Assembly (NCBI GenBank): GCA_977017645.1
Contig: CDRNVU010000048.1
Location: 1,612,001-1,676,000 of the forward strand
Reading direction: 5' to 3'
Length of the DNA stretch: 64,000 nucleotides
Source: Torpedo marmorata
Taxonomy: Eukaryota
Shown: piece by piece, positions 1,027 through 61,100 of the stretch
Numbering within the stretch: position 1 is the first letter of the stretch
Layout: each line of letters opens with the position of its first letter
The notes under the pieces: generated by a model
Databases searched by the model: none
What the model was told of the DNA's origin: nothing
What the model saw: the letters and a program-made list of their open reading frames with translations, nothing else
Position numbers and translations under genes: made by a program

Positions 1027-2391
1027 GTGGTTATTGGAGAAAAGTTTTGGTGACAAGCATATAATTTCTAGAGTCTATACACAGAAAGCTCTTTCATGGT
1101 CATCAATAATACCAGAGGACACGGATGGTTTACAATCTTACGCCCTCTTTCTCAGAGGATTTTTAAACGTCATGACGGATATTGCCTATCGTCGAGAGGT
1201 TGACGTACCTCAGAATATGGTAAACATTGTAGATAAATTACCAAACCGGATGAGAGAATTATTTAAAATACAAGTTCTTGAATATCAAATAAAACACAAG
1301 GTGGCAACTACTTTTTAGGATTTGGTGGATTTCATTGAAGGACAAGTGGATGTTGTTACAGATCCAGTGTATGGAATTAAGAGTACTCAAACAGTGAGTA
1401 AAGAGGTTGAAAATACCAAATTGTATCCGCAACCAAAATTAAAGACAAGTACATTTGCCACCTCTCTCACAGTGGTGGATAAAGAAATTAAGGAAACTAA
1501 AAGTTCACCTGTTGAGAATATTTGTTTATTATGTAATTATAAGCACGATTTGGGAAAATATGCACAGATTGAAAAGTAGACGCATCGTGAGAAATCGCTT
1601 TTTTGAAGGGAAATGGAGTGTGTTATGTCTGTCTGTGTAAAGGAAACATCAGAAAAGACTGCAAAAAGCGACTCTCCTGCGATATATGTAATCAAAAACA
1701 TCCCAAAATGCTACACGTCTTCAAGGAAAAGAAGGATACAGAAAAGGAACAAACGTCGATGAAAGAAACAGATGAAAACAGTGCTCAAGCTTCAGTGTCG
1801 ACAAGTGGCCTGACTGGGGCCGGTGCAGAGAACTACAAACTCTCGATAGGACCTGTACAAGTTAATGCCAATATTGGGAATGAAACAGTACATACTTATG
1901 CATTTCGTGAACAAGGAAGCACTGCATCATTTTGCACTGTTGGGCTTATGAAAAGGCTTAAACCTGAAGAAAAAAGACAAATATTCTATTGAAAACCATG
2001 GAACAAAATATCTTTTTTAAACTAACATGGTTTCATGTTTATAGGCTGCTGGAAAACACAGTGACGATTTTTGTGATCTTCCAGGCATATATACACAGAA
2101 GGCTATGCCTGTGCATAAAGGAAACAAACCACATCAAAGTGAGGTGGATCAGTGGTCCTATCTGAGGAAGGTTTATATGCCGGAAGATAACTCTAAGATA
2201 GAGATGCTAATTGGTTTAAATGTACAAAAGGCTCTGGGACCAATAGAGGTAATACCTAGTGTGAGAGATAGACCTTACGCTATTAAAACAATGCTTGAAT
2301 TGACAATCAATGGACCATTAGAAAGAAAGAATGATATTGCTCAGAAGCAGTCAACAACCAGTGTCAATATGATATCTGTTGTGAAACTGAA

Positions 2392-3915
2392 AGAACCTTC
2401 AGAAGAATACAAACAGTTATTAGAAATTCTTGCTGATGAAAATGAATCAAGATCATCTAAATCGGTAAGGAAGAAATTGTTTTCATCAAAAATGGATGAA
2501 AATGAAGCATTCGAAAATGCTGCAAATACTGCAGGTGATTATTCCTGTGAAGTTAAATCAAACGGAAAGAATGAAACAAATATTTGATCAAAATCAAGAT
2601 CAAGATTCCATTTATTGTCATAATAATAAGACAGTGTCATATTCCATGAAATTTCTTTTTGCCTGCTGCAAGGCAGACAGATTCGCCACCGGCAGAAATT
2701 GCCTAAGCGCCTCTAACATTCCTTACAGTCAGAGAAAGAGAAGGAAAGAGAGACCCCCCAGAGTCATCGAGTGTCCGTAGATTCGCCTCCAGCGCTTCCG
2801 CAGCCTCCGCAGCCACAGAGAGTCCAGTCCAAACCATCGGCAAGCCGAGCTCCAGATCGAACCTCCGACACGGTCAGGGCGCCCTCGGCACCCCCTCGCA
2901 TCCCGGTTGCGATACCTGGTACTCCTCCAGCCAGTTCGAGCCAGCCTCCAGTAGTCCGCAGCCCAGCGTGAGTCCCCCGACAGAAGTCTCCAGCAGCCCA
3001 CAGCCTCCGCCGGTTCCTCGCCTCGAGTCGCAAGCAGACCGCCGAATGCACTGGTCCTTCAGCCTCAGAGCCCCTCACTGGTCCGCCGCCGTGGTCACCG
3101 TCCCGTGGGTCGTCTCCTCCGCTTCTCCTTCTCAGACGGGGGGTGATCTTCCCGACCTCTGGTGCCCTGCTCTAGTCCTCCGCTTCCCCGGAGTCTGCAG
3201 CCCCTCGTGGCTGCTGCCGGTTAAAAGGCGCTGCCATATTGGGCGCAGACTCTATGGTTGCGGGATCGTAAATAAAACCAAACAAATCTGACAATATGGC
3301 GCAACTGCCTTCAGAGTACAAAATGTTGAAAAATAACTTAGAAATATTGGATGGTCCAGAAAAATATGACCAAAAAGTTTTGAAGTTTGAACTTGAAAAC
3401 AACACTGAATCTGATAAATCGTCAGTTTTGAAAGTAACCGAAAGAGAAGCTCAGAGAGCAGTTGACAAGAATGGAGAATTAATTGTAAATATAATTCGTA
3501 AAACCATGAAGAAAAGAATAACTGCTAAAGAAATGAATGCAGTTATTTACGAAAGGGATTCAGCATTATCAAGATGCAAAAGGCTGGAGGAGGAGATTCA
3601 TTTTGTGAAAGAGAACAAGTCATTGTTTAATGACACAAGACAACTGACTATGGAAAACAATGAAGAATGTACCGTGACGATGCAAATATAAAGACATATT
3701 ATATTCTTGAAGACCCAGTTGAAAATGCAGAAAGAAAGAAATATTACATTATTGAAGACCCAGTTAATAAATACAGAAAGGGAATCTGATTAAAAAATTG
3801 CAAGGTAAATCATCAATAAATGAGACTGAATTGGAAGATGCAAAATTGGATCCGGAATTACAGGAAAAGACAATGGAAGCCAGAGTGGCTGTTGATGAAT
3901 TTGAGGAACCAATGT
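2392..3915 (+). pseudogene. MIPOL1: Intronless MIPOL1-like coiled-coil fragment inside the BEL element, interrupted by an insertion at 2584-3292
   Basis: ORF 3296-3691 contains KNGELIVNIIRKTMKKRITAKEMNAVIYERDSALSRCKRLEEEIHFVKE...TRQLTMENNEE. This matches vertebrate MIPOL1 as I recall it (KNGAIIVDRIYKTKECKMRITAEEMSALIEERDAALSKCKRLEQELHHVKE...MRHLTAENNQE). Boundaries are approximate. Confidence 0.8.
2584..3292 (-). mobile_element. ~710 bp non-coding GC-rich retroposon with a Rex1/Babar-type 3' tail
   Basis: On the minus strand it ends ATGACAATAAATGGAATCTTGATCTTGAT, and its 5' end has an AATATGGCAGCG motif. It is flanked by AATAT at 2579-2583 and 3293-3297 (candidate TSD). Confidence 0.65.
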
Positions 3916-4187
3916 TGTTTGAGTCCTACCCTTTCTATAACCGACCGCTGTAGAAAAAGGAACAGAGAAAGAAGACTCATCTTGTGTCCTCAAGAAAGTG
4001 AATACCTTGGAAATTGAAATTGACTTTCCAAACAGAACGATTACCAAAATCTGACTTTTAAATGAAACAGAAAGCTTTAATGATTGACTTTCAATTTCAT
4101 TTGAATATTTACCGGATGTGTTATTATATTTGATTCTCTTTATAGTTGTCATTATTATTTTTAAATATAATAATTTGGGGCCGGAAT

Positions 4188-4612
4188 TGTAAGTGTTAAA
4201 ATGACATTCAATCACTTGTTCACTTGGGATGCCAGTTTGTGGCAGCCTGCAGTTTGTTTTGCATTCCTTTGAGTGTTTCTGTTGTTGCAGCCTGTGAGAC
4301 CAAAGCCTTTCTCTGTGGTTTTGAGGTAAGACAGTCAGTTTTGAATTGTTCTTACTTCTGAGAAGATGGAGGGTCTTGGAATAGACCTGCAACTATACTG
4401 ACCGTTTAAAGTAACGGGTCAAGTAACGTATAAATTATATTTTAAGCATCATGTTAATCGTATCTCAAAGGTGATAAGTAATAACCCATATAAGGTGTAA
4501 TAAACCTTGGAAAACTCTATTCAAGTTCTTCGTGGATCGTTTTCGATAAATGAGTAATAAATAAGGACATTCCAGGCTCTCCAGGAGACTATATAGGAAG
4601 ATAGTCGCTACA
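4188..4612 (+). repeat. 3' LTR of the BEL/Pao element
   Basis: Follows the PPT-like GGGGCCGGAAT (4177-4187). Begins TGTAAG, ends GCTACA and contains AATAAA. CR1 sequence starts immediately after it. Confidence 0.7.
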
Positions 4613-9396: not shown

Positions 9397-10279
9397 CTCG
9401 ACAAGGGTTTCGTGAGTTAATAAACATTCTGTCACCGCCGGTCTCTCCCACCTACTTCGTGAACTGCATTGCATCCATCTGAAGCTTTCGTGTCGCATCC
9501 ATCTGAAGCCAGCGTTTCGCATCGATTAAAACCTTCTTGTCAATATTGGATGTTTTGAGACTGAATTTTGAACTGAAATGTCCTTTTTGACGAGTGACAA
9601 CCAAAACTCCCCTCTTATTTTGCGTGGGGGACACGAAGCGAGTGATGGTCAAAAAGCTTACAAAACACTTTCCGTGGGTCAGACGTATTCACGTAACACT
9701 CACAATGGTCACAATCCAAACGCAGTATGTCTTCTGCTTCCAGAAACATTTCAGTGGGTCCGCGATCAAAGTGACCTTCACATTTTTGTCACAGAGTGGT
9801 ATTCTCATTCCCCTGCAACCTGGAGAAATCAGACTAATTGTCTATCACCACACGAGGCCACATTCACCACAGTATTCCTTCAAAGGTTGCTTTTCCAAGG
9901 GATGACTCTTTAAAATGGCAATATCGCATTCCCCTATAACATGGGGAAATCAGACAGATTGTCTATAACCACACACGAGGCCACTTCAGTACTGTATTAC
10001 TTCCAAGAGCACTGCTCCACAGCACTGCCTCCTCAAAATGGCCCCTGAGCAAAACTGTGTACTCAGGCTTGAATCTGATGGTCACATGGTCTAAGCACCT
10101 GGGGTTTTTCCACGGCCCCACCCTCTCTCTTCAGATGTATCCAATTTGGGAACACGCTGTCCTCAGCCTGCGGTCAGTTCAGTCACTCTACAGAGCCTGC
10201 AGGGTTTTGTTAAGTTTGTTTTCTCAACGTGACAGTCCCACGCAGATGAAATGTATCTGAAAAATGGTAGCACGTAATA
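9397..10279 (-). repeat. 3' LTR of Gmr1-like family A, truncated and partly inverted
   Basis: 9576-10279 aligns directly with about 16645-17358. 9397-9575 is the reverse complement of about 16479-16632. Confidence 0.85.
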
Positions 10280-13200
10280 CCTCCCACCAACAAATAAAAT
10301 TTTGATTTGTAAGAGCAAAGTTTTAACTGCAATGTTTTAAATAATCCATTCACTATTTACGTTATATAATACAACATTTTACAGTAACGTTGCAAACTTA
10401 ACATCTTGAAAGGCAATCAGCAATTACATTATCTTTTCCTTTAATATGAATTATCATTAAATCATATTCCTGTAGAATTAGACTCCAATTTAACAATCGT
10501 CGATTTTTGTTTTTACTTTTACTCAAGAACACTAAGGGATTATGATCAGTATACACAACATGTGGGCTCTGAGCTGTGCAGATATACACATTGAAATGCT
10601 GCAAAGCTGGTACAAGGGACAATAATTATTTCTCTATAGTAGAATAATTATTTTGATGTTTATTGTATATTTTTGGTGGACTAAGCCACTGGATGGTCAA
10701 TCTCATCACAACCGTCCTTTGTAAAAACACTGCTCCTGCAGCTTCATCTCTAGCATCAGCTGCTAAAGAAAATGTCTTCTCAAAGTCAGGTGACTTAAGC
10801 ACAGGGTGATGACATAAAATGACTTTCAGTTTGTCAAAGATTTCCTGTCAAAATTCTGTCCAAACAAACTTTTCACCCTTCTTCAAAAGGTTTCTCAAGG
10901 GTAGGGAGATATCAGAAATTTTTTTACAGCACTTTCTGTAATAACCAACAATTCCCAAAAACCTTCCAATAGCTTTCTTACCCTTGGGTATGGGAAATTC
11001 AACAATCGCCTGAACGTTCGCCTGAACAGGCGCCAACTTGTCCTGACCAACAACATAACCACGATAAGTCACAGGAGCATGGCCAAATTCACTTTTACCT
11101 AAATTCATAGTCAGGTTTACTTTTGAACGTTTGTCAAATAATTTCTCTAACACAGAGATATGTGCTTCCCATGTGTCATTCCCTGTAACCAAATCATCAA
11201 TATAAACATCTGTATGCTCTAAACGTTGTGTGACAGAATTAATCATTCTTCGGAATGTCCCTGGCCCATTCGTTATTACAAATGGCAAAACATTATATTC
11301 ATATAACCCTGACGAGGTCACGAACGCAGAAATGTCTCTACATCTCTCTGTTAAAGGAACACACCAGTAAACTTTCAATAAGTCCTTCTTGGTAAGAAAC
11401 TTAGCCTTTCCAACCTTGTCCATACAATCATCGACCCAAGGGATAGGATAAGCATCTGTCTTTGTTACCGCATTATTTTCTCCTATAATCAGTGCAAAAT
11501 CTAACCGTCCCATCTAATTTAGGCACCAGGACACAAGGCCAACTTCAATCTGATGTATAACGTCTAATAATATCATTCTTTAACATATATTCAATCTTAT
11601 TATTTACAAGTTTACACTTTTCCACATTCATTCTATATCGATGTTGTTCGATAGGTTTGGCATCTACAACATCCACTTCATGACAAGTTATTGGGGTTCT
11701 ATTAGGCACATCTGGAAACAGGATTCTAAATGTCAAAGGTCGCTGTTTCATTTGTAACTTTTCCTGCGGCTGCAGAGGAGCCAACGTTGCATCCAAATTC
11801 TACAAAATGTCCGAATTAAACAGACGAACTGGAACAATGTTTTGTTTGAAGTGACCCTCACAAGGGTCAGCTTGGGCTGTCTCAAGGTACCTAACTTCCC
11901 CAGTCCTATCCGAAACTAACACCTCTGGTGAAGGCTGTTCCTTGCTACCAGTCAAGTTCTTAAAATAGGGTTTTAACATGTTGACATGGCAACTCTGCGT
12001 TTTACGTCTCCGATCAGGTGCTTTAAGTAAATACGTAACTTCATTCACCTTTGACTCTATCTCTTAAGGGCCGGAACATTTTGCCCTAAGGGGATTGCAA
12101 TTTCTTGGGAAAATAATTAACACTTTATCCCCTGGTGTAAAATTTTTCACTCTGCCCTTTTTATCATACCAGACCTTCATTTTACCTTGAGCCGTTTTCA
12201 AGTTCTCTTGGGCCAATTCACAGACTTTCTGCAAACGATCTTCAAAATTCGAGACATAATGCAATAAATTCAACCGCACATCCTCATTAATCCATTGTTC
12301 CTTCAACAACACTAAAAGTCCTCTAACTTGATGTCCAAACACTAACTCGAAAGGGCTAAAGCCTAATGATTCTTGCACAGACTCTCTCACTTCAAACAAG
12401 AGCAAATGGACACCCTCATCCCAGTCTTCTCATTCTTAACACAATAATTTCTCATCATGGCTTTCAGAGTCGAATTGAATCTCTCCAAGGCCCCTTGAGA
12501 CTCTGGATGATATTCAGATGACGTGATCAGGTTAGCTCCCAATTCATCAACTGTCTGCTGAAACAGTCCCGACATGAAGTAGCTTCCCTTGTCTGATTGG
12601 ATCTTTTGAGGCAAACCAACTAAAGTGAAAAGTCTCAGAAAAGCTCTTGACACATGTTTAGCTTTAATATTTTTAAGTGGTATTGTTTCTGGAAACCTTG
12701 AGGCGGTACCATGATAATTAGCAAATGTTGAATTCCCGTTTTTGTCTTGGGCAATGGGCCAACGCAATCCACAGTAACTTTGGAACTTTTAACGCCAAAA
12801 ACAGAAATAGGTTCTGAAGGAGGTTCTGGGAGACCCTGATTAGGTTTATCCGCAACCTGACAAACGTGACAGTTCCGGCAAAATGTCCCAACATCTTTTC
12901 TCAGGCTCGGCCAATAGAATTGCTTCATGATCCTGTATACAATTTTATTTATACCAAGATGACCACCCAAACGTGCGCTTGGGACAAGGTTAAAATTTGG
13001 TCCCTATTAGCATTAGCAACTACCACCTGGTGAACATTTGCCCATTCTTTATTGGCAGGGATATCAAGTGGTTTACACTTCCTCATTATCACCCCTTCCT
13101 TAAAATAATATCCAACTGGCACTTTCTCAATTTCCTCCTTGGAGAGAGCCTTATCTCGCACCTCAGCAATGTCAGGATCTCTGTTTTTCCCCGCCATAAA

Positions 13201-13796
13201 CTCCTTTAGAGACAACGACAAGTCCGTGCCCTTGGGTTTACCACCAGAACTCTGGTCCAAACCCTGTGCACGGTCAAGCGCTTTAGACATAGCTCGCTTC
13301 ACTGGACAGGCTGGATATATATATAAATCTGTCTTTGTTTCCTCCATGACTGGCTTGGCAGTCAACCTCACTGCGGGGGCAACATTACTCTCTGCAGGGT
13401 CATTACCCAGTAATAACGAGACCGCCTCCGCTGGTCAACTTGATCGGACCCCTATGGGAACAGGTCCGTTAACTAATTCTGATTTCAACATTACCCTGTG
13501 CAGAGGTATCGACTCTGGATCACTCCCCAAGCCTCTAATCCATTTTATGTCACCCGTGGCAGTCTCATCGCCAAACTCCAACACACTGTCCAACACGAGT
13601 GTCTGGTCGTCCCCAGTATCTAGAAAGAATTTTACTGTCATTTGCGGTGACCCTTCCTGCAACGAAACCCAACCCTCTGACACAAAATATTTGAACTGTT
13701 AATACTCCAAGCAGGTCTGGAACTCTTTTGGTTTCCATGTTTTCCACGTTTTTGAATACAGGCACCTGGAGATGCCTCCCTTTCTCTCTTTTTACT

Positions 13797-14648
13797 TGTT
13801 ATGGACCATGACTGACCATTTGGACTGCGGACGGTCAGCAGGAAGGATGAAGTATTTTGGAGTATACACTGGGGCCAGGTACTGAAAGAGTTAACTTGCC
13901 CAGGACGTGGTGTACCCAGAGAGAGAGAGAGATAGCAGAGAGAGACAGACTGTGGAAAAGATACATTGTTGCACTTTTTCAAAAGCAGGTGCAGACCTCT
14001 GCAAAAAGCAGACAGTTGGGAGGTGCAAAGGCTAGAGAACACAGCCAAATGCAGGCTTGTGCATCCCAGAGAAAAGACTGGCAGGATAGCACATGGCCTC
14101 CTGTCTCAGAGAAATTCTGAGGTAAAGCAACTTCTGTGGAGAACAGGCGTGAGATCAGCGAGTCCAGCTGTGAGATCCAAGCACACGCCTTAATCAGTGG
14201 TATACTGATCTGAACTCGCAATCCTTATGAAAACACAAGAAGGGAACGTCATCAGAGAAGAAAAACAAGTATTTGTAAGCATAAACAGTCATTGTCTCTC
14301 TCCAACGTTCATTTAGAACTACTTCTACCTGATACAGAGCTGTATTTGAAACCTGAACTTAGAGAGTGAATTTTGTGGACTGTATTATTTCCTTTTGACT
14401 GACTTGTTTTTATGACTGACCTGGGGTTTTTGGGGAAAGTTTTTCCATTTTTACATAAGGGTTGGGCACAGACTGTAATGGTCTGGGCTTTACACACACA
14501 CCTTTTAGATAAGAATAGTGTTTATAGACGATTATAGTGGGGTTAATTGTTGTGAAATTATATGTTTAATTGTCTTTAATAAATAGTAATTTCTATTTTA
14601 CCCCTTTTGCATTGCGTCTTCTGTCGTTGCTGGTTTGATTTTGTTACA
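13797..14648 (+). mobile_element. Solo LTR of Gmr1-like family B inserted into the family A gag-pol region
   Basis: TGTTATGGACC...TTGTTACA is the reverse complement of the LTRs at 36676-37723 and 43747-44650. Perfect 4-bp TSD TACT (13793-13796 and 14649-14652). Confidence 0.93.
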
Positions 14649-15040
14649 TACTCAACACGGCACTATTTGCTTTCACATGAACAGGTTTCTAACAATAGTA
14701 GCACAGGGGTCCCGAAGGTTTTTCCTGTTCGTGCTTCCCTTCATCTTTACCCTGAGCACGAACTCCAGATCTGTTTTCTAACTAACGTGGATATTCCACA
14801 TTACCCCTCTGGAAGGTTATACCTGGCACAAATTGAACCTTGTGGGTTAAAGCATACTCATCCGCCAGTTTAGCAGATTCCTTCCTGATTTCCACTCCCT
14901 TTACATCTAAATAAACTTTTATGTTATCCGGAACGCATCTTTTAATCTCCTCGACTCACACGAGCTCTGTCATGCTCCCCATTTATGTTTCTTGACGTTC
15001 ACCACCGGTCAACGCACACCGCTTTATCACATGCAAAACC

Positions 15041-28242: not shown

Positions 28243-29465
28243 ATCCATGCAGTCTATAAATATCCACTGGAACCTATTCCCCACTCAAATCCAAGATTAT
28301 TATTCTCACAATTCCATCAACCATTCACGATTGCACAAGATTGTTTGGAGTCATATCCAACATTCCATCCATTCATTAAAAATATTCCGTGTCTTCCGAC
28401 AACCCGAGTCCTTCACGCTGATCTAAGTCAAATAATCATATATTACGATTACATGTCCTTTCTGTCCATGTCCCGGAATCCAAACAGCACCTACAGACAC
28501 TAATCACAGTTTATGCTTCCCTCAATCGCATTTTCACCGTCACACTCGACCACTCACACAATTTACAAATGTCGAAGTAACCTTCCAAAACCACACACGA
28601 TTGAACTGTTGGATGAATCTGAACTATCACAGGGAAATAAATGCTAATCTCCACGCAGACGGAACCAGAGGTAATATCTCAAGAGGAGGTGCTCATGGTC
28701 TTAAAATTCAATATAACACCTCACATGAGCAACGATTATAGAGCAGAGAATATCACGGCACAGTCCAGACCCACAATCAAGGTCGCGCCGACCTATGTGA
28801 ACCTACTCTGCAACAATCTTGTATTTCCACACTCACACACACAATAGTCTAATTTTCTTTCACCTCTGTGCCTGTCTAAGGGTCTGTTGAATATCTCTAT
28901 TTTGCGAGACTATGCCACCGCCCCGATCTCTCAACACTCTGACGAGAAATGCGTATCTTTGATCATCCCGCGGATGATCGTTTCGGGAAACACGTGTTGA
29001 CTGTGCATCCCATCTAGGTACGTCCTAATCCTATGTACCCCAGATAAGTTAACTCTGCCTTCGTTTCTCCAGAGAGAAATTCCAAGCCCTGTCAACTTGG
29101 CTTTATGTGACATGATCTCTGATCCAGATTTCATCCTGCTAAACCTGCACGACACTATCGCCAAAGAACCCACATCCGTACTGCAATGTTATGACCAGGA
29201 AAGAACGTAATATTCTCAGTGTGGTCTGACAGGAATTGTACAGGACTTCAACATTACCCCACGGCCTTGAACTCAATACCCCGAATAATGAAGATCAACA
29301 CACCATCCAGCTTTTTAACTGTCTTATGAAATTGCGTGGTAACCTTGGCGGATCTATGGATCTGAACACTAATACAGCTCAGCTCCTCCATTCTGTTAAT
29401 AATTCTGCAATTCACCACTTAATCTGCCTTTAGTTTCTACATTCCAAACTGCAATATTTCACATT

Positions 29466-31442
29466 CAAGCACTCAGCCATAGACATAAATGAATATGCAA
29501 CAGGTGTCACCGACTTCATCAAGACCTGCGTGGATGAGTCTGTGCCCACGCGCAAATACCGGGTGTTCCCCAACCAGAAGCCCTGGATGAATCAAAGAAT
29601 TCGCAACTTGCTGAGGACGAGAACAAGGGCGTTTAAAGAGGGGGACCGGGATCTTTACAAAAAGTCCAGGCACGACCTGCGGAAGGCCATCTCTGAAGGA
29701 AAGTGGCAATTCCGAAGGAAGCTGGAGACAGAGACAGATACACGCCAGCTATGGCAGGGAATGCAGGCCATTACAGCCTACAAAACGAGGGCGAACACTA
29801 TAGACGGCTGTGATGCTTCACTACCCGATGAGCTGAACACCTTCTATGCCCGCTTTGAGAAGAAGAACAAAACAGTGCCTAATAGAATCCCTGAGAGGGC
29901 AGAGGACCCTGTGATATCTGTCTCTGAGGGCGACGTCAGAACATCATTCAAGAGGGTGAACCCTCGCAAGGCGTCAGGCCCTGACGGCGTACCTGGCAGG
30001 GTACTGAAAATCTGCGCCAACCAACTAACAGGAGTGTTCACGGACATTTTCAACCTCTCATTGCGGCAGTCAGAGGTTCCCACCTGCTTCAAAAGGGCAT
30101 CAATCATCCCGGTGCCCAAGAAGAGTAGTGTGAGCTGCCTCAACGACTATCGCCCAGTAGCACTAACTTCTACTCTGATGAAATGCTTTGAGAGGCTGGT
30201 CATGGCCAGAATTAACACATACCTAAGCAATTCGCCTATCGTCACAATCGCTCCACAGCAGATGCAATATCGCTGGCTCTCCACTCAGCTCTGGATCACC
30301 TCGAAAACAACAATTCATACATACGGCTGCTCTTCATAGACTACAGCTCGGCCTTCAATACCATTATTCCCTCAGTACTGGTCAGGAAGCTACAAACTGT
30401 AGGCCTCTGTACCCCACTCTGCAACTGGATCCTTGACTTTCTCATCGGAAGACCACAGTCAGTAGGAATTGGAAACAACGTCTCCTCCTCACTGATTATC
30501 AACACAGGCGCACCCCAAGGATGCGTGCTTAGTCCACTGCTCTACTCGTTATACACTCATGACTGTGTGGCCAGGCACAATTCCAATGCCATATACAAGT
30601 TTGCCGATGACACCACAGTTGTCGGCAGAATCACAAACGCCAATGAGGAAGCGTACAGGAGGGAGATAGATCAGCTCATTGAATGGTGTAATGACAACAA
30701 CCTCGAGCTCAACGTCAGCAAAACCAAGGAGATGATTGTGGACTTCAGGAGGAAGTCAGGGGAACACAACCCAGTCCTCATCGAGGGCTCAGTCGTGGAG
30801 AGGGTCAAGAACTTCAAATTCCTGGGTGTCAACATCTCCGAGGATCTGTCCTGGAGCATCCACGTGGATGCAATCACAAAGAAGGCTGGTCAGCGGCTAT
30901 ACTTTGTGAGGCGATTGCGGAGATTCGGTATGTCGCCAAAGACTCTCGTGAACTTCTACAGGTGTACCGTGGAGAGCATTCTAGCTAGTTGCATCACTGC
31001 CTGGTATGGTGGTGCCAACTCCCAGGACAAGAGCAAACTCCAGAAGGTTGTTACCTCGGCCTGTGACATCACGGGCACCAAACTTCACTCCATCGAGGAC
31101 ATCTACATGAGGCGATGTCTTAATAAAGCAGCCTCTATCCTCAAGGACCCCCACCACCCAGGCCATGCCCTCTTCACGCTGCTTCCATCGGGGAAAAGGT
31201 ACAGGAGCCTAAAGACGAGCACTCAACGGCACAAGGTCAGCTTCTTCCCCGCTGCCATCAGAATCCTGAACAATCAATGAACCAAAGACACTAGTGCACT
31301 ATTGTTTATAATTTTTTATATAGTAATGTCGTTAGAATGGTTAATATGAATGTTAATTGCACTATGATGCTGCCGCAAAGCACCGAATTTCATGACTTGT
31401 TCATGACAATAAATTCTGATTCTGATTCTGATTCTGATTCTG
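29466..31442 (+). mobile_element. Young 5'-truncated Rex1/Babar LINE (RT ORF with one frameshifting deletion near 30230)
   Basis: ORF 29530-30339 (PNQKPW, KASGPDGV, NDYRPVALTS) and ORF 30525-31280 ([25 protein letters not shown]), with an (ATTCTG)n tail. The paralogous empty site is at about 23020. Confidence 0.95.
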
Positions 31443-36675: not shown

Positions 36676-36817
36676 TGTTACAAATTCAAACCAGCAGCAA
36701 CAGAAGACGCAATGCAAAAGGGGTAAAATTGAAATTTATATTTATTAAAGACAATTAAACATGTAATTTCACAACAAATATCACCACTATAAACGTCTAT
36801 AAACACTATTCTTATCT

Positions 36818-36865
<48 letters not shown>

Positions 36866-37723
36866 GCCCAGACCATTACAGTCTGTGCCCAACCATCATT
36901 TAAAAATGGAAAACCTTCCCCAAAACCCCCAGGTCAGTAATAAAAACAAGTCCGTCCCAAAAATACAGTCCACAAAAATTCACTCTTTATGTTCAGGGTC
37001 CAAATTGAGCTCTGTGTGCTGGCAAAGAGGACTTCTTAATGAACGTTGGGGAGATAGACAATGACTGTTTAAGCTTACGAATGCTTGGCCTGTTTTTCTT
37101 CTCTGATGAATTTCCGTTTTGGTAGATTTACAAGGATTGCGACTCCAAATCCGTTTTGGATTGAGGCGTGTACTTGTATCTCACAGCATGTCTCGCTGAT
37201 CTCACGCCTGTTCTTCACAAACGTTGTCTTCAACTCAGGAATTTGCTGAGTCACGAGGCCCTGCGTTATTCTCCCAGCCATTTCCCCTGGGATGCACAAG
37301 CCTGGATTTTGCTGATTCAGGAGGCCCTTTGCTATTCTCCTAGCCTTTTCCCCTGGGATGCACAAGCCTGGATTTTGCTGATTCAGGAGGCCCTTTGCTA
37401 TTCTCCCAGCCTTTTCCCCTGGGATGCACAAGCCTGGATTTTGCTGGGTTCTCCAGCTTTTTCTAACTCCAAACTGCCACTAATTCAGTCCTCCACGACT
37501 GAACTTCAAGGCCATCCTGCAGAGGTCTTTTTCTGCCTTCTTCAAATGTGTCACCAAGTATCTTTTTCACAGTCTGTCTCCCTCTGGTGTCTTTCTCTCT
37601 GTAAGTACAACAAGTCCTGGGCAAGTTAACTCTTTCAGTACCAGGTCCCAGTGTGTACTCCAAAAGATTTCATCCTTCCTGCTGACCGTCCGCAGTCCAA
37701 ATGGTCAGTCATGGTCCATAACA
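36676..37723 (-). repeat. 3' LTR of family B, with an internal 66-bp unit in 3 copies
   Basis: TGTTACAAATTCAAACC...GGTCCATAACA on the plus strand; abuts the PPT. Confidence 0.95.
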
Positions 37724-38499
37724 CCTCCCAACCTCAAAGAAAACTTTGGTCTGCAAGAACAAAATTTTGGAAATTGAGGTGCTACAATATACACAATACT
37801 CACAATGTTTATCCATAAACACAAAATATGAACTGTTTTAACATAAAGTTTAGCATCCAGAAGGATAATCAGCAATTACATTATCTTTCCCTTTTATAAG
37901 TGTTATTACTAAATCATATTCTTGCAAAATTAGACTCCAATTCAACAACCGTCGATTCTTATTTTTCATTTTCAAAGAAAAACCAATGGATTATTGTCAG
38001 TATACTCTATGAGTGGTTTTGTAGCTGTGCAGATATAAACATCAAAGTATTGTAGAGCCAATACAAGAGCTAACAACTCTTTTTCTATGGTTGAATAATT
38101 CCATTGATGATCTTTGAACTTCTTCGAGAAGTAGGATACTGGATGGTCAATGTCCTCTTCGTTCTTCCTCTGGAACGGCATCGCTGGCATCCACGGCTAA
38201 AAAAAAGTCTGTTCTAAATTAGGTGAATTGAGCTCAGGTTAGTGGCATAACATGGCTTTCAATTCGACAAATGCTTCCTGACAACCTGTCGACCATACAA
38301 AATTTTCTCTCTTTCTAAGCATATTTCTGAGAGGCAGCGCAATATCTGCAAAATTTTTTCCAGAACTTGCGGTAGTAGCCAATCATTTCCTGGAAACTCC
38401 TCAGAGTTTTCTTACCAGTTGGAACAGGGAACTTGGAAAAGGTCACAACCTTTGCTTCTACTGGCGCCAAATGTCCCTGTCCTAATACATAACCCAGAT

Positions 38500-39589
38500 T
38501 GAACATTGGCTGGAAGGGAGAGGCCAGAGAGTGGTAGTGGATAATTGTCTGTCAGGTTGGAGGCAGGTGACCAGCGGTGTGCCTCAGGGATCTGTATTTG
38601 GCCCGTTGTTGTTTGTTATATATATCAATGATCTAGATGATGGGGTGGTAAACTGGATTAGTAAATATGCAGATGATACTAAGATAGGTGGAATAGTGGA
38701 TAATGAAGAAGGTTTTCAAGGATTGCAGAGGGATTTGGGCTGCTTAGAAAAGTGGGCTGAAAAATGGCAGATGGAGTTTAATGCTGATAAGTGTGAGGTG
38801 CTTCATTTTGGTAAGAAGAATCAGAACAGGACAAATGTAGTAAATGGGAGAGCATTGATGAATACAGAAGAGCAGAAAGATTTAGGAATAACGGTGCATC
38901 GTTCCCTGAAGGTGGAAACTCATGTGAACAGGGTGGCGAAGAAGGCTTTTAGTATGCTGGCCTTCATCAATCATTGCATAGAATTTAGGAGTTGGGAAGT
39001 GATGTTGAGATTATATAAGGCTTTGGTGCGGCCTAATTTAGAGTTCTGTGTGCAGTTCTGGTCGCCAAATTATAGGAAGGATATCAACAAGGTGGAGAGA
39101 GTGCAGAGAAGGTTTACCAGAATGTTGCCTGGGTTTAAGAATCTAGAGTACAAGGAGAGATTGAGCAGATTAGGTCTTTATTCTTTGGAGCGTAGAAGGT
39201 TGAGAGGGGATTTGATAGAGGTATTTAAAATTATGAAGGGGATAGACAGAGTAGATGTGGATAGACTATTTCCATTAAGAACAGGAAAGATTGAAACAAG
39301 AGGACATGAGCTAAGAATTAAGGGGCAGAGGTTTAGAGGTAACATGAGGGTGAACTTCTTTACTCAGAGAGTGGTAGCGGTGTGGAATGAGCTTCCGGGA
39401 GAAGTAGTGGCGGCAGAGTCAATTTTATTATTTAAGAAAAAGCTGGACAAGTATATGGATGAGAGGGAAGTGGAGGGTTATGGGCAGGGTGCAGGTAGGT
39501 GTGACTAGATAGGAATGTTTGGTTCGGTGCGGACTGGAAGGGCCTAATGGCCTGTTTCCGTGCTGTAATTGTTATATGGTTATATAGTT
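38500..39589 (+). mobile_element. Young 5'-truncated CR1 LINE with an uninterrupted RT C-terminal ORF (38531-39508), nested in family B pol
   Basis: 325 aa open frame (VTSGVPQGSV, KYADDTKI, DLGI, FFTQRVV) with a GTTATAT(G/A) repeat tail. The host frame ATVIY|LGYVLGQG rejoins when the insertion is removed. Confidence 0.95.
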
Positions 39590-42500
39590 ATAAATAACAG
39601 TAGCATATCGAAACTCACTTTTACTTAAATTAACTGTGAGATTCGCTTTCGACAGTCGTTCGAACAATTGTTTTAGCTCAAAGACATGCTCTTCCCAGTT
39701 GTCACTACTTACAATTAAATCATCAATGTAAGCACCTGTGTTTTTAAACCCATGAATTACTGAATTAATCATTCTCTGAAATGTTCCTGGAGCATTCTTC
39801 ATACCAAAAGGCATAACATTATACTCATACAGCCCAAAACGTTTTACGAATGCAGAAATCTCACTAGCCCTTTTTGTCAAAGGAACACACCAGTACCCTT
39901 TCAATAAGTCAATTTTTGTAAGATATTTGGCCTTCCCCACGTTGTCTGTACAATCGTCTATTCTAGGAATAGGATAAGCATCTGTTTTTTACAGCATTTA
40001 CTTTCCTATAATCAGTGCAAAACCTAACCGTTCCATTAGGCTTAGGCACTAAAACACAAGGGAAACTCCAATTGGAAGTTGACTTTCGAATGATTTTGTT
40101 CCATACCATGTAGTCAATTTCCTGATCTACCAGTTTGCACTTTTCCGCATTAATTCGATAGGGATGTTGTTTTATCGGTCTTGCATCTCCTACATCCACA
40201 TCATGATAAGCGATGGAAATTTTCTGAGGCACATCGGGAAATAAATTTATTCATTTTAAAAATAACTGACTCATCTCTTCCTTTTCAGAAGTTTTCAGAT
40301 GAGCCAACTTTGTCTCCAGATTGCACAAAATCATGGAATTTAATAACCTCGGGCTTATCAATTTCTGTGTCCCATGACCCTCTCTGAAACTGGTTATATC
40401 TGTCTCCTCCTTACCCTGATCAATAACCAGCATCTCTGGTAAATGTTCAGTCCCTTTGTATGGCACCTGTTCAAAATATGGCTTAATCATATTCACATGA
40501 CAGACCTGGGTGTCTCGTCTGCGATTAGGTGTTTCTATGACATAGGTGACATCATTAAATTTTGACTTAACTCTATAGGGTCCTGAAAATCTAGCCCTAA
40601 GAGGATTTGAATGGATGGGAAACAGAACTAATACGTTCTCACCAGGTTTAAAAGTTCTCATCTATGCCCTTCGATCATACCAAACCTTCATTCTCTGTTG
40701 AGAGGCCTTTAAATTATCCTTCGCTATCTCACAAGCCCTATGCAACCGATCCTTAAATTTTGAAACATAATCTAACAGATTTAAATGCACATCACATTTA
40801 AACCACTGTTCTTTTAATAATTTTAAAGGACATCTCACCTCATGTCGAAAACTACCTCGAATGGACTAAAACGAAGTTATTCTTGGACAGACTCCCTCGC
40901 TGCAAATAAAAACAAATGAACCCCCTCATCCCAATCCTTTTACTTCTCACAACAATAGGTTGTAATAATGTTTTTCAAAGACGAATGGAACCTCTCCAAG
41001 GCCCCTTTACTTTCTGGATGGGACGCAGATGATACAATCTGTTTAATTCCCAGTCCATCAACCACTTGTTGGAAAACGCCTGACATGGAATTACTGCCCT
41101 GATCTGATTTAATTTCGTTTGGAAAACCTACCAAGGTGAAAAACTGTACTATAGCCTTTCCCATTGCTTTTGCTTTAATGTTTCTCAGAAGAATGGTCTC
41201 TGGAAATCTGGTGGCTGCACACATAATTGTTAACAAATACTCATTCCCCGCTTTGGTTTTGGGCAATGGGCCAACACAGTCCACAATCACTCTCGAGAAA
41301 TTCTCGCTGAAAGCAGAGATAGGTTGCAAGGGTGCAACCGGGGTACCCTGATTAGGTTTACCCACCAACTGACAAGTGTGACAGGCCCGGCAAAAGCTTA
41401 CAACCTCCCTTCTCAAACTGGACCAATACAATTGTTTCATTATATTCCGTATAGTTTTCTTCACCATAATGTGACCACCTAAGGGTGTGCTGGGAGCCAA
41501 AGTTATTATTGCATCCCAATATACTTCAGGAATCACAACCCGCTGCACTACTGCCCATTCTTCATTGGCAGGAACATCACATGGTCTCCACTTTCTCATC
41601 AACACCCCATCTTTTTCATAGTAACCCATTGGCAACATTTTAATCTCCTCTTCAGAAAAAAACATATCCCTCACCTCAGCAAGATCAGGATACTCCTTTT
41701 GCCTTGCTATTTGCTCCTGTCGGGATAGTGACAAATATGTGCCTTCAGGTGTCTTACCATTGGATGGGTGTAACACAGGAGATTATCTCAACCTTTTCCA
41801 GGTATTCTAGATTATCACTGACTTTTTCTTTCACCAATATCGTTTCCACTGCCTTCTCTACAGTGACATTTTTCTTAGACATGGCCCTGGTTATGGCACA
41901 TGCCGCATAAATATCAGAGTCTTTCTCTGACATCAATGACTGGCTTAGTGGTCATTCGCACTGCAGGAACTACTTTACCCTCGGCCACGTCATTGCCTAG
42001 CAACAGTGAGACTCCTTCTACTGGCAACTCTCCTCTCACTCCTATTATAACAGGTCCTTCCACCAAGGCTGAGTCCAGCACTATTTTGCGCAAAGGAATG
42101 GACTCACCATCGTCACAAATTCCTTTAATCAAATTCATTTCACCGGTGTCAGTAGCTTCGCAAAAGTCCAAGACACTATCTAACACAAGTGACTGAGCAG
42201 CTCCAGTATCTCGCAAGATTTTCACTGGAACTTGCTTTGATCCTGCCTTAACTGAAACAAAGCCATCAGTCACAAAAGGTTTAAATACATCCCTAACTTT
42301 GTCAGTAAATTTGTCTCCTTCCTGGGTGTTATGCCTCTTCTCACTCTGAATACAAGCATTAGGCGTTGCATCCTTTTCTCTCTTCTTTTTCAACACTGGA
42401 CAGCTTGCTAACATATGACCAGCCTTCCTACAGTAGTGGCAAATGGGACCGGAAGGATTTTCCCTTTTCCACTTTCCTTCATCTCTTTCCTTAACACCAC

Positions 42501-43164
42501 GTCCAAATTTACTTTCCACTTGCGTGGTATTATCCACATTACCCATTTGGAAAATTCTGTCTGACGTCCACTAAGGCTTGTGGGTTAAAGCATATACATC
42601 TGCTAACTTAGCTGTATTTTGCCAGGTTTTCACCTCTATTTCATCTAAGTATGCCTTAATATCGTCAGGAACACACCTCTTTATGTCCTCGAATATTATC
42701 AATTCTCTCAATTGATTGTAATCATTGTTTACCGCCTTAGAGGTGCACCACCGGTCAAAACACACAACCTTTTCATAGGAAAAAACTGTGTAAGATTGGG
42801 TTGATAATCTTTTTGAACTTCTAAACTTCTGTCTATAAGCCTCTGGATCTAACTCATAAGCCTGGAGTGTAGCCTTTTTAACCGTTTCATAATCAGCAGC
42901 TTGCTCTGTGGTAAGAGTAGAATAAACTTGCTGAGCTTTTCATTTTATTACACTTTTTAACATAAGAGACCATTGGTCTTGTGGCCATTTTAATTTCACA
43001 GCCACCTTCTCAAAATGTTGGAAGTACTTATCTATTTCCGACTCCTCAAATGGAGGAACAAACCTAACTTCTCTACTAGCCACAAACCTCTCAACAGGAT
43101 GACGAATTTGATCTTGGTGCTCTTCTTGTCTCCTCTGATTTTCCAACTTAATCTTTTCCAGCAC

Positions 43165-43395
43165 ATATTGCCTAATGTTCTCCTCTTTCTCTAAGTCTAA
43201 TCTCTTTTGTTCCAATTCCGTGTCTAATTTCTTTTGTTCCAATTCCGTGTCTAATTTCTTTTGTTCCAATTCCGTGTCTAATTTCATTTGTTCCCTGGCT
43301 ACCTCCAAGTCTAATCTCTTTTGTTCCAATTCCCTGTCTAATTACTTTTGTTCCCTGGCTGCCTCCAATTCCAATTTATTTAGTTCCAATTGTAT
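43165..43395 (-). repeat. 27-bp tandem repeats in family B gag encoding (ELEQKKLDT)n
   Basis: Repeated unit tccaattccgtgtctaatttcttttgt; see ORF 42940-43329. Confidence 0.85.
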
Positions 43396-43720
43396 ATTTT
43401 CAGTAGGTTTACCCTTGCGAAACTGCTCTAACACGCTCTCCTCAAATGTTTTCCCTTTTATATAGTATTTGAATAATTTTCTCCCAATCTCTGCATTTTT
43501 CATTGATGGTTTTACAGAAGCAATGCCCAACTCTGCTTCTATACCCACTAACTGTTCCTCTTTAGCATTTGTTAAAGTATCAGGTTCAGGTGATAACGAA
43601 AATGTTTCTACATCCATTGTTGCTGGTTTTTCGTTACACGCACACTAGTTTTTAATTAGTTTTACAAAATAAATTCTTAAACCAGACTGGGATTCCTTCA
43701 ATTACCAAGATGGATCTTGA

Positions 43721-43743
43721 TTCAAATCCCGGACGAGCCCCCA
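43721..43743 (-). promoter_or_regulatory. Primer-binding site complementary to the tRNA-Pro 3' end
   Basis: The plus strand reads TTCAAATCCCGGACGAGCCCCCA, identical to the vertebrate tRNA-Pro 3' terminus including CCA. It lies 3 nt from the LTR. Confidence 0.92.
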
Positions 43744-43746
43744 TTT

Positions 43747-43890
43747 TGTTACAAATTCAAACCAGCAACGACAGAAGACGCAATGAAAAAGGGGTAACAT
43801 TGAAATTTATATTATTAAAGACAATTAAACATATAAGTTCACAATAATTAACCTCACTATAAACGTATATAAACTCTATTCTTATCTAAA

Positions 43891-43925
<35 letters not shown>

Positions 43926-44650
43926 GGCCAGACAATTACAGTCTATGCCCAACCCTCATGTAAAAATGGAAAACCTTCCCCAATTCCCCAAGGTCAGTCA
44001 TATAAACAAGTCAGTCCCAAAAATACAGCCCACAAAAATTCACTCTCTATTTTCAGGGTCCAAATTCAGCTCTGGTGCTGGCAAGAAGGACTTTTTAATG
44101 AACGTTGGAGAGAGAGACAATGACTGTTTATGCTTACGAATGTTTGGCCTGCTTTTCTTGTCTGATGACTTTCCCTTTTGGTAGATTCACAAGGATTGCG
44201 ACTCCAAATCCGTTTTGGGTTGAGGCGTGTACTTGTATCTCACAGACTGTCTCGCTGATCTCACGCCTATTCTTCACAAAAGTTGTCTTCAACTCAGGAT
44301 TTTGCTGAGTCACGAGGCCCTGTGTTATTCTCCCAGCCGTTTTCTCCTGGGATGCACAAACCTGGATTTTTCTGGGTTCTCCAGCCTTTTCAACTCCAAA
44401 CTGCCACTGATTCAGTCCTCCACAACTGAACTTTAAGGCCTTCCTGCAGAGGTATTTTTCTGCATTTTTCAAAAGTGTCACCAAGTATCTTTTTCACAGT
44501 CTTTCTCCCTCTGGTGCCTCTCTCTCTGTAAGTACAACAAGTCCTGGGCAATTTAACTCTTTCAGTACCAGGTCCCAGTGTGTACTCCAAAAGACTTCCT
44601 CATTCCTGCTGACCGTCCGCAGTCCAAATGGTCAGTCATGGTCCATAACA
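43747..44650 (-). repeat. 5' LTR of family B
   Basis: Homologous to 36676-37723, with a single copy of the 66-bp unit. Confidence 0.95.
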
Positions 44651-53895: not shown

Positions 53896-54054
53896 TCCTT
53901 CCTGCCCTCTCCCGGTCTTTTCCACGGTCCAGGTCTCAGTTTCCACCGATCCGTGCGGGTAAAGTAATGTGGATGCGTTAACGAATCTGCCAAATTGTCG
54001 CTTTGGCTCCCGGTCTGGTCAGTAATTGATCTACATCTTTTCTCTCTATTGCAG

Positions 54055-54953
54055 CGAACTTGGTTGACATTGTTATCCTGTCCAGGGGAAAGTGCGGTCT
54101 CTCCAAGTGTGTCACTCGCTACCTGGTGGGGATGGCAGTGGCCGATCTCCTGGTCGTTATCTCCGACGCTCTGCTGAGGCAGACAGCTGACATTTATTTT
54201 CCATTTTCATTTCTCCTGTTTACCCCCGTCTGCCGTTTCAGGAAGTGGATGATCTTTGCAGTTACCGCGGCCTCCGTCTGGCTGACCGTCGTTTTCACCT
54301 TTGACCGATTTGTTGCCATTTGTCATGAGAAGCTGAAATCAAGATATTGCACCGAGAGAACGGCGGCTGTGGTTGTCGGGACTGTGAGTGTGCTGAGCTG
54401 TGTGGAGACAGTTCCCTGGTACATGACAATCGAACCTCTAGAATTCATTGACAATATTCCCTGGGGTTGTGTGGACAAACAGAACGTTGCAATGTCTCCT
54501 GCATGGGCTGCATTTGAGATATTTCACCGCATTTTAACTCCTTGTGTCCCGTTCTTTCTGATTCTGTTGCTCAATGCTCTGACGGTCAGACGGATTTTAG
54601 CGGCAAGTCGAGTCCGCAGGGAGCTCCGGGGCCGCAGAAACGGAGAGAATGAGAAGGATCCGGAGATGGAGAACCGACGGAAATCCATCGTTTTACTCTT
54701 CAGTATCACCGGCAGCTTCATCTTGTTGTGGGTGACACAGGTGGTGTTTTACATCTATCGACGAGTATCAAAGGTGTTTGAATACTCTGTGGTCGATCCC
54801 CGTTATATCACAGAAAGCATATCAGGAATGCTGCAGCTTCTCAGTTCCTGCACCAACACATGTATTTACGCCGTGACTCAGAGTAAATTCAGAGAGGAGC
54901 TAAAGAACGCGATTAAATACCCTCTGAGTCGGATCATGCAATTCGTTAAATGA
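54055..54953 (+). CDS. GPR139/GPR142-like class A GPCR, coding exon 2 (spliced product about 322 aa)
   Basis: Acceptor ttttctctctattgcag at 54054 and an open frame to TGA. Seven hydrophobic segments with the motifs MAVADLL, SVWLTVVFTFDRFVAIC, TPCVPF and SSCTNTCIY. Confidence 0.93.
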
Positions 54954-57813: not shown

Positions 57814-58176
57814 AACTTCACTCTATCGAGGACATCCACATGAGGCGGTGTCTTAAAAAAAAGCCTCTATCCTCAAAGACCCCCACCACCCAGGCCATGC
57901 CCTCTTCACTCTGCTTCCATCGGGAAAAAGGTACAGGAGCCTAAAGACGAGCACTCAACGGCACAAGGACAGCTTCTTCCCCGCTGCCATCAGATTCCTG
58001 AATAATCAATGAACCAAAGACACTGCCTTACTTTTCGTGCACTATTGTTTATAATTTTTATAGTAATGTCGTTAGATGGTTAATATGAATGTTGATTGCA
58101 CTATGATGCTGCCGCAAAAACACCGACTTTCATGACTTGTTCATGACAATAAATTCTGATTCTGATTCTGATTCTG
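57814..58176 (+). mobile_element. Short Rex1/Babar 3' insertion inside L1 ORF2
   Basis: Near-identical to 31082-31442, with an (ATTCTG)n tail and TSD AACT (57810-57813 and 58177-58180). Confidence 0.93.
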
Positions 58177-61100
58177 AACTCTTTTAATATTTCCAAACAA
58201 AAATATCATAGGGTCCATTGGGAATGTAATTTTCAATACTTTATCTAACATTTTTTTAACTTTCAGCCAAAAATAATAAACCTTTAGACAAGACCATGTA
58301 GAATGTACAAAAGAACCTTCCTCTCTATTACATCTAAAACATAAACCTGATAAAGTCGCGTTAAATTTCTTTAACATTTTAGGTGTTAAATATAATTGAT
58401 GAAAAAAGTTATATTGAACTAATCTATATCTAACATTAATAATCTTCGTCATACTTAGTTTACATAATTCTTTTAAATGATCTTCATCTAATGTTACATT
58501 CAAATCTAATTCCCACTTTAATCTTGATTTATGAATTCGTACTTTAGGAATTTTTCTCTGAAACCATCTATACATTTGAGAAATAAATGTATTTACATCT
58601 CCATTAGTAACCAATAATTCTAATTCACTCTGTCTTGTTAAAGTCAAACTATAAACTAATTTCCCAACCAAAAATGCTCTAATTTGATAATAAGCAAAAA
58701 GTGTATTATCCAATATATTAAATTTATCTTTCTTTCATTGAAAAATAATAAATTTACCAGCTTCAAAACAATCATTTATTTTCTTAATTCCTTTTTGAAA
58801 CCAAATTTGAAATAATTGATTATTAACAGTAAATGGAATAAGTTCATTTTGATATTAAGGCATTTTTGGAGAAATCAACCATTTTCCTCCTATTTTCTTA
58901 TCCACTCTATTCCATATTTCCAGCAAATGTTTAAAGATAGGAGAATTCTTCCTTCTTGTTAATATTAATTTAGAATTCCATTTATAAATAACTACTCCTT
59001 TTGAATCTTCTCCTATATTATTTAATTCTATTCTAATCCAAGCGGAAGACTTAGTGAAATCAAAACGTTCATTAACAAATTTTAATTGAGCTGCTTTATA
59101 ATAATTTTGAAAATTAGGAAGTTGTTAACCACCCATTTCATAATTCCAAGTTAATTTGTCTATACCTACCCTAGCCAACTTTCCTTTCCACAAAAACTTC
59201 CTAATAATTAAGTTTAAATCTTTTTTTAAATTTTGAGGAATTTCATAAGAAATTGATTGAAAGAGATATTGAATTCTTGGAAAAACATTCATTTTAATGC
59301 AATTTACCCTTCCCATTAAAGATATAGGTAAATCCTTCCAACTCTCTAACTCTTTTTTTAATTTTCATAAACAATGGTAAATAATTTAATTTATACAAAT
59401 TAACTAATTTTGTATCAATCATTATTCCGAAATATTTAATTTCTTCTTTTGACCATTTAAATTGTGTAATTTCTTTACATTTACTATAATCCCCTTGCGT
59501 TAATGCCATATTTCACTTTTATCAGAATTAATACTATAACCAGATATTTCCCCGTATTCTCTCAATAAAGCAGTCAATTGTATTAAATAAGTAGTAGGTT
59601 TTGTCATATATATCAATACATCGTCTGCAAATAAACTAATTTTATGCTCTTCCCTTCCAACTTTAATACCTACAATCTTAACATCTTGTCTAATTTATTC
59701 TGCCAAAGGTTCTATCGCTAAAATAAACAATGCTGGTGACAAAGGACATCCTTGTCTAGTTGACCTAGTCAGAGGGAATCTTGAAGAAATTTGTCCATTT
59801 GAAACCACTTTAGCATAAGGTTCTTTATATATAGTTTTAATCCAGTTAATAAATTTATTTCCAAAACCAAATTTATCCAATACCTTTAATAAAATATTCC
59901 ACTCTAATCTATCAAAAGCCTTTTCAGCATCTAACGTTAATACTAATGGTAAATCACCCTTCTTTTTATGCACATTAATTAAACCAATTAATCTAGCTAT
60001 ATTAACCATTGAATATCTATTTTTAATAAAATCAGCTTGATCTACATGGATTAAATCTGGTAAATAATTAGCCACTCTATTTGCTAAAATTTTTGCCATT
60101 ATCTTATAATCCACATTTAACAATGAAATAGTTCTATATGATTCTGTTTTCAACACATCTCTATCTTTTTTTGGTATAACTGTAATAATTGCATTTGAAA
60201 ATGTATCCGGTAACGAATGAGTTTCCGTAATTTGTTTCAACGCATCCATATATGGAGGTATCAATAAATCTTTAAACTCCTTATAAAATTCTGATGGGAA
60301 ACCATCTTCCCCTGGAGATTTACCACTCGTTAAAGAAGTAAGAACCTCATTAACTTCCCTCATTGAGAAAGGCGAGTCTAAAGAATCTTTACTTTGAGTA
60401 ATTAATGTAGGTAACTTAATTTTAGATAAAAATCTATTAATTTTAGAGTCATCTTGATCAATCTGAGATTTATATAAATTCAAATAATAATCTTTAAAAT
60501 AATCATTTCTTTCTCGAAATTTATACGTTATTTTGTTAGAATTCTTTTTATAGCATTTATAGTTCTAGAAGTTTGATCTTTCTTTAACTGCCACGCAAAC
60601 ACTTTATGTGCTCTTTCTCCCAATTCATAGTATCTTTGTTTAGTTCTTTCAATTAATCTTTCCATGTTATATGTTTGTAACAAATTATAATGCTATTTTT
60701 TTCCAACTAAATTATTCCTTTTTTCTTCTGATCTCTTTTTTTGCAAATCCTTCTCCAAATATTCAATCTCCCTCTCTAAATTATCCACCACTCGAAGATA
60801 ATCCTTCTTAATGTTTGCTGAATAACTTATTATTTGACCTCTTAAATAAGCCTTTAACGCCTCCCAAATAATAAATTTATTATCAGTCGAATTAGAATTT
60901 ATTTGTAAAAATTCCTGAATTTCCTTTCTCATATAATCACAAAAATCCATTCTTTTTAATAAAGAATTAAATCTCCAGCTATATATAGTTTTTTTTCTTT
61001 TTCCGGAATTATACAAGACATTAATAAAGGTGAATGATCAGAAATTATTCTCGCTTTATAAGATACTTGTGTTATTCTATCTTGAACTTGTGAAGACAAT

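Follow-up and report, generated by a model that had tools for sequence, protein, structure and literature searches.

Permuted MIPOL1 sequence in place of pol in a decayed, multi-copy BEL/Pao-like element of Torpedo marmorata

Introduction

How did sequence from the host gene MIPOL1 come to lie within the remnant of an LTR element, and was it ever translated as part of the polyprotein of that element? The question is raised by a locus near the start of a 64,000-nucleotide stretch of Torpedo marmorata DNA (GenBank assembly GCA_977017645.1, contig CDRNVU010000048.1, positions 1,612,001 to 1,676,000 of the forward strand), which is referred to below as the window. A first-pass annotation had proposed that removal of one insertion, along with one copy of an AATAT repeat, restores an in-frame fusion of a BEL polyprotein with a MIPOL1-like protein. 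Our analysis supports the view that a BEL-like element, which proves to be multi-copy, captured MIPOL1 sequence, but it does not support the fusion. Spliced MIPOL1 sequence stands in permuted order in the place of pol, the element has decayed and taken a later insertion, and its sequence is widely repeated. We found no description of this MIPOL1-carrying LTR family in the literature listings searched.

A BEL/Pao-like carrier that lacks pol

The carrier lies on the plus strand and begins with a decayed gag-protease region (1030-2395) that contains several stops and frame changes and whose 5' end is missing where the remnant abuts a LINE fragment. A motif scan, read together with the list of stops, located three Cys/His knuckles at 1523-1561, 1621-1662, and 1678-1716, two of which are degenerate, and the motif scan also placed a degenerate protease-like motif at 1909-1932. 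Three such knuckles are a feature of BEL/Pao Gag, and the domain DUF1758 is likewise tied to BEL/Pao elements. The upstream frames of the remnant lead to DUF1758-bearing clusters in the ESM Atlas, with features of 0.90 (32% of members) and 0.93 (28%), whereas Pfam returned 0 families for the gag-protease region and thus no BEL family. We describe the carrier as BEL/Pao-like on the basis of these Atlas features and of motifs known from such elements. In the available part of one published survey, DUF1758 is listed as a protease domain of LTR elements (PMC5933816).

Farther downstream, beyond the MIPOL1 sequence, an unassigned plus-strand stretch (3891-4075) has at its 3' end a motif at 4037-4060. 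Pfam gave no match in the region of this motif, which we take to resemble the C-terminus of BEL Pol. Sequence features tentatively mark a putative polypurine tract at about 4175-4187 and a putative 3' LTR that runs from a TGT at 4188, through an AATAAA at 4499, to an ACA at about 4569, both on the plus strand. The resulting LTR would be approximately 380 nt long; lengths of 0.2-1.2 kb are given for BEL/Pao LTRs in the portion of the literature at hand (PMC3118150). The 5' LTR is absent, and neither a second LTR nor an LTR pair was found within the 64-kb window.

No reverse transcriptase (RT), RNase H, or integrase domain was detected by Pfam in any plus-strand frame of 1030-2584 or 3296-4197, and no Gypsy-like order of these three domains is present. 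The element is therefore non-autonomous at most. Compared with BEL/Pao elements as described in the passages available (PMC3118150), it shares the gag-like Cys/His motifs, a possible DUF1758-like region, and the putative LTR, but it differs in its broken frames and in its lack of RT, RNase H, integrase, and a 5' LTR.

Several other elements share the window. Two pieces of an L1/Tx1-like LINE, about 90% alike, lie on the minus strand at 1-1027 and approximately 58,141-61,633; an endonuclease match in Pfam covers 602-1027 and an RT covers 59,695-60,564, and the first of these pieces is the one that abuts the BEL remnant. Gypsy-like LTR remnants occupy approximately 9,400-14,650 (minus strand), with an RT at 10,848-11,513, and 36,700-44,650, with an integrase at 40,940-41,782. 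LTR-like repeats of the latter lie at 37,016-37,723 and 44,075-44,650, have inverted relatives near 13,800-14,650, and enclose a nested CR1-like RT frame of 340 amino acids (38,486-39,508, plus strand). The window also holds a single-exon open frame of 307 amino acids (54,030-54,953, plus strand) for a rhodopsin-family GPCR (7tm_1, E 4e-22).

Spliced MIPOL1 sequence in permuted order

Among 337 candidates, the downstream frame has a sole match, which is the MIPOL1 protein of Narcine, an electric ray (E 7.9e-23). The likeness falls into two plus-strand pieces. Piece 1 (3446-3676) corresponds to amino acids 442-520 of the Narcine protein (P0001), with 56 of 77 residues identical, and piece 2 (3770-3890) corresponds to amino acids 331-370, with a frame change near 3790 and 26 of 33 residues identical over amino acids 338-370. 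Between them (3677-3769, plus strand) are imperfect tandem copies of amino acids 520-535 with a 45-nt period, which include a stop at 3689-3691. Identity to two sharks is lower, at 50/74 and 47/74 for piece 1 and 21/33 and 20/33 for piece 2. The two pieces occupy the position expected of RT, RNase H, and integrase.

Exon borders of MIPOL1, as estimated from protein isoforms and divergent gene models, fall at 294/295, 339/340, about 374, about 418, about 429, 521/522, and 552/553. Piece 2 crosses the border at 339/340 and the tandem copies cross that at 521/522, in both cases without an intron, and so the source of the sequence was spliced RNA. No poly(A), 3' exons, or target repeat was found around the pieces. 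The locus thus presents an intron-less piece of mRNA within a discontinuous LTR element, without a poly(A) or a target repeat of its own, as is characteristic of LTR-mediated retrocopies.

The order of the pieces, amino acids 442-535 followed by 331-370, is permuted in all 28 of the 36 homologues that match both. Such non-colinearity is a hallmark of pseudogenes derived from circular RNA, and it raises the prospect that an LTR element reverse-transcribed a circular MIPOL1 RNA across its back-splice junction. The use of internal exons only and the missing poly(A) would also suit such an origin, as would the precedent of the mouse circRFWD2 copies (Dong et al. 2016, PMC4897178), which, in the sections available, combine non-colinear internal exons, many copies, LTR flanks, and no poly(A). 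A back-splice should nevertheless join an exon end to an exon start. Here the junction passes from about amino acid 525/535, within the exon spanning 522-552, to amino acid 331, within the exon ending at 339, on borders drawn from protein isoforms, and thus lies away from the exon ends, unlike the circRFWD2 copies as described there. Indeed, all piece ends (about 442, 535/525, 331, and 370) fall inside the estimated exons, as expected of template switching but not of back-splicing. Jumps by RT are likewise suggested by the tandem slip where the pieces join. We consider a circular RNA source very improbable.

A separate observation concerns the MIPOL1 model of Discoglossus (P0007), which contains four tandem copies of approximately amino acids 430-486, a region that piece 1 overlaps. 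These may reflect exon duplication or an artefact of the gene model.

Repetition in other fishes

The locus was aligned to contigs of four runs, representing four organisms and four studies; 19 runs were listed, each with at most a quarter of the words. None was marked as RNA, which carries no information on expression, and runs X4 and X17 are RNA only by guess. All 30 bins were covered in each of the four runs. One variant letter inside piece 1 was seen in 90, 39, 8, and 16 contigs of the respective runs, and one inside piece 2 in 61, 42, 1, and 14. The summed depth over piece 1 in run X1 reached 291,000-393,000, against 12-25 for single listed contigs, a figure that is not a copy number and that excludes a single-copy gene.

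Among the 32 pieces listed of 127,778, the left edge of piece 1 is spanned by five, which come from three organisms, and the permuted junction by one; three extend from piece 2 through the motif at 4037-4060, and one crosses the putative LTR start at 4188. None of these 32 pieces (15 of 379 joints) bridges 2395 or the site of the retroposon described below, and that the gag side is joined to MIPOL1 in other copies too is presumed, as no listed contig displays it directly. In three other organisms the pieces are bordered by the same flanks, and many variant contigs with these flanks occur in all four, as counted by contigs and not by insertion sites.

The copies are clearly not all built alike. 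In X1 the depth over piece 1 exceeds that over the gag bins by a factor of 4-40, so that many MIPOL1 pieces may sit in other settings, and piece 1 is also deeper than the BEL bins in X2 and X4. The junction bin (3670-3789) is far shallower, with a depth of 2,420 in X1, and in that run the putative LTR has about a tenth of the depth of the inner region. An AT-rich plus-strand segment at 2396-2581 is repeated in other genomes (contigs X1 r3 and X4 r25 span it), and the plus-strand segment at the start of ORF 3272-3691 (3288-3445), which is not MIPOL1-like, differs among copies, with loose contig ends at 3352. These two repeated segments may stem from another transcript that was captured or from a non-coding part of MIPOL1.

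These depths bear on whether the pieces might be an ordinary MIPOL1 retrocopy that was made by a LINE, was later rearranged, landed in BEL debris, and was multiplied by way of a separate repeat or a segmental duplication and not by LTR mobilization. The excess depth of piece 1 over the BEL bins in three runs, the absence of a 5' LTR or LTR pair from the window, and the lack of a listed contig that bridges the gag side are each compatible with that account. It is countered by the recurrence of the same flanks in three other organisms, by the absence of poly(A), 3' exons, and a target repeat around the pieces, and by a position that fits the missing pol. On balance, a LINE-made retrocopy appears improbable.

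A later insertion and its target site

The element is interrupted by a GC-rich, very high-copy, non-coding retroposon of SINE-like character, 698 nt in length (2582-3279, minus strand). Its GC content is 58%, with 47 CpG, compared with 33-36% GC in the flanks. The first-pass annotation was right that an insertion divides this locus. Summed contig depth over the retroposon reached 2-4 million in X1, and no Pfam or Rfam match was obtained for it. On the minus strand, its 3' tail is similar to those of four window repeats, one of which is the 3' end of an RT-bearing LINE near 31,430. This LINE (29,434-31,430, plus strand; RVT_1 and ALKBH8_N) is presumably of the Rex1/Babar type and is a possible mobilizing partner of the retroposon; further tails lie near 9,200, 49,240, and 58,170.

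The proposed joining of the frames on the two sides of the insertion depends on the target site. AATAT does occur at 2579-2583 and again at 3293-3297, 714 nt apart, and the codon arithmetic built on this spacing was correct. An in-phase repeat of at least 5 nt between the two boundary zones is readily supplied by chance, however, arising in 820 of 1000 shuffles. An alternative 8-nt duplication, AAACAAAT, at 2574-2581 and 3280-3287 (plus strand), has a spacing of 706 nt and hence a different phase; a repeat of at least 8 nt arose in 117 of 1000 shuffles, so AAACAAAT alone is not significant.

Contigs from another organism distinguish the two. The alignments of records 18 and 19 of run X2 start at 3280 and 3281, with one and no window letters left out, respectively, and the 62 letters that precede the start in record 19 do not fit the retroposon. 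Positions 3281-3292 therefore belong to the host element and not to the insertion. Were AATAT the target repeat, the alignment of a copy lacking the insert should not continue leftward past 3293, because the nearest seven letters all mismatch. AATAT was accordingly rejected as the target-site duplication and is probably a chance repeat inside the host element. The evidence points to the better-supported 8-nt repeat at 2574 and 3280 as the likelier target repeat, the empty site itself being absent among the 15 of 379 joints displayed.

The proposed fusion frame

The two open frames on which a fusion was proposed do exist and share a phase: 2045-2587 (ATG at 2105; 180 codons) and 3272-3691 (ATG at 3296; 139 codons). 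Because 3281-3292 lie in the host element, however, the two frames of this copy are out of phase across the insert, and the restoration of frame that had served as the supporting signal, which depends on AATAT, is not supported. Their contents also depart from what was proposed. The upstream frame (2105-2587, plus strand) was thought to pass from BEL into captured sequence; it is indeed BEL-like in its post-protease portion to approximately 2395, but the remainder is unassigned, ends within the retroposon tail, and is not significantly MIPOL1-like. The best MIPOL1 score of 2396-2581, a marginal one against the Narcine N-terminus, was reached by 10 of 200 shuffles and lies in another frame. The Gag and protease motifs (1523-1716 and 1909-1932) that were to form the first part of the chimera precede ORF 2105 and are separated from it by stops and frame changes. 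That ORF therefore contains neither, and no single open frame holds both Gag and the host part.

Downstream, the MIPOL1 likeness is real from about 3446, approximately 150 nt after the retroposon, but it is absent at the join where it had been aligned. There, scores as high were reached by 166 of 200 shuffles for 3296-3337 and by 127 of 200 for 3290-3439, and none of 30 relatives covers residues 1-37 of the downstream ORF. Protein searches revealed no annotated fused protein (one of 337 candidates, which is MIPOL1 itself; 0 of 384; and 0 of 6), and the exact ORFs are absent from the protein collection, all of these being weak negatives. Metagenome and viral scans yielded nothing, a single pattern match proved to be a chance match in a bacterial-looking contig, and there was no meaningful PDB match and no Rfam match. 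An internal repeat noticed by eye between 2380-2583 and 3288-3450 was reached by 124 of 500 shuffles and is not above chance. A restored fusion in this copy is not supported.

The source elements might still have kept a translated BEL-to-MIPOL1 frame under selection that this copy has since lost. That long open frames flank the retroposon to the left and right would accord with such a history, as would the 77 codons of piece 1 that are free of stops. Among the 12 best-supported indel rows (of 89), those at four sites of 2105-3790 outside the insert come to three letters apiece, which hints at frame keeping. Among the six listed contigs over ORF 3296-3688, none differs from the window by a multiple of three and is thus in frame with it; five share one remainder, which may mean that a frame change is private to this copy. 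Weighing further against a kept frame, the 8-nt target repeat sets the two frames out of phase, piece 2 lies beyond both a stop and a frame change, no fused protein appears among the matches, and 27% of the residues of piece 1 depart from those of the Narcine parent, many of them at positions that are conserved in vertebrates. We regard selection on a translated frame as unlikely, and a coding chimera in the source elements of the family is unsupported. A more elaborate proposal, in which a selected BEL-to-MIPOL1 coiled-coil frame aided packaging or escape from control and drove the excess of MIPOL1 retrocopies in cartilaginous fishes, is unlikely.

A proposed origin by template switching

The reading that we favor, and judge to be probable, is that ray-like cartilaginous fishes harbor a non-autonomous LTR family of BEL/Pao type, of which this locus is one decayed copy, and that MIPOL1 was captured in this family by template switching, amplified in trans, and carried as a passenger and not as a selected fusion. 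RT in a particle of the ancestral element would have switched from the element RNA to a co-packaged, spliced MIPOL1 mRNA. It would then have jumped within that mRNA, producing the short tandem slip at amino acids 520-535 before moving back to amino acid 331, and would finally have returned to the element, such that MIPOL1 presumably took the place of the RT-RNase H-integrase region. Intact relatives may have copied the shortened element in trans to many loci in several species, of which the repetition is observed and the mobilization in trans is conjectural, as are the co-packaging and the template switches. The present copy would later have decayed and taken the SINE-like insertion with its 8-nt target repeat. 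Several observations given above weigh against this reading: the lack of a BEL family in Pfam, the unbridged gag side, the excess depth of piece 1, the shallow junction bin and LTR, and the three-letter indels.

The mechanism itself is already known as LTR-mediated retroposition. In the available portion of the report by Tan et al. (2016, PMC5131818), this route includes one case in a BEL element (the mosquito retrocopy in BEL18_AG), copies made by multiple switches, and re-mobilization as non-autonomous elements. The retrocopies described there resemble this locus in that partial spliced mRNA lies in a discontinuous LTR element without poly(A), that several switches are possible, and that the product is mobilized again as a non-autonomous element. 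They differ from it in that, at the locus described here, a single gene contributes the pieces, which are permuted and include a tandem slip, that its host is a cartilaginous fish, a lineage outside the survey in those passages, and that it appears to be repeated on a much larger scale than the few insertion sites reported there would indicate.

Implications for MIPOL1 retrocopies in cartilaginous fishes

A 2026 preprint (bioRxiv 10.64898/2026.06.26.734816) gives MIPOL1 as the first of the five genes most often retrocopied in cartilaginous fishes. In the passages at hand, it associates retrocopies with non-LTR elements, interprets lineage profiles as a result of selective filtering, and makes no mention of carriage by LTR elements. 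We offer the hypothesis that the LTR family described here may explain why MIPOL1 is among the most retrocopied genes of these fishes. The repeat-masked-alignment filter mentioned in the same passages could equally remove such copies, and the link to the LTR family is hypothetical to that extent. Other top retrocopied genes given there, namely SUDS3, SDF2L1, SLU7, and ZNF276 in cartilaginous fishes and PIWIL2 and DND1 in amphibians, are possibly transposon passengers likewise.

If the favored origin is true, the family would be an example from vertebrates of a BEL element that multiplied a gene fragment many times over, and it would caution that a permuted exon order need not mean an origin from circular RNA. 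Moreover, should the many MIPOL1 retrocopies in cartilaginous fishes prove to be passengers of a single LTR family, rankings of retrocopied genes in that lineage would reflect one capture followed by transposon amplification, and not germline expression or selective retention.
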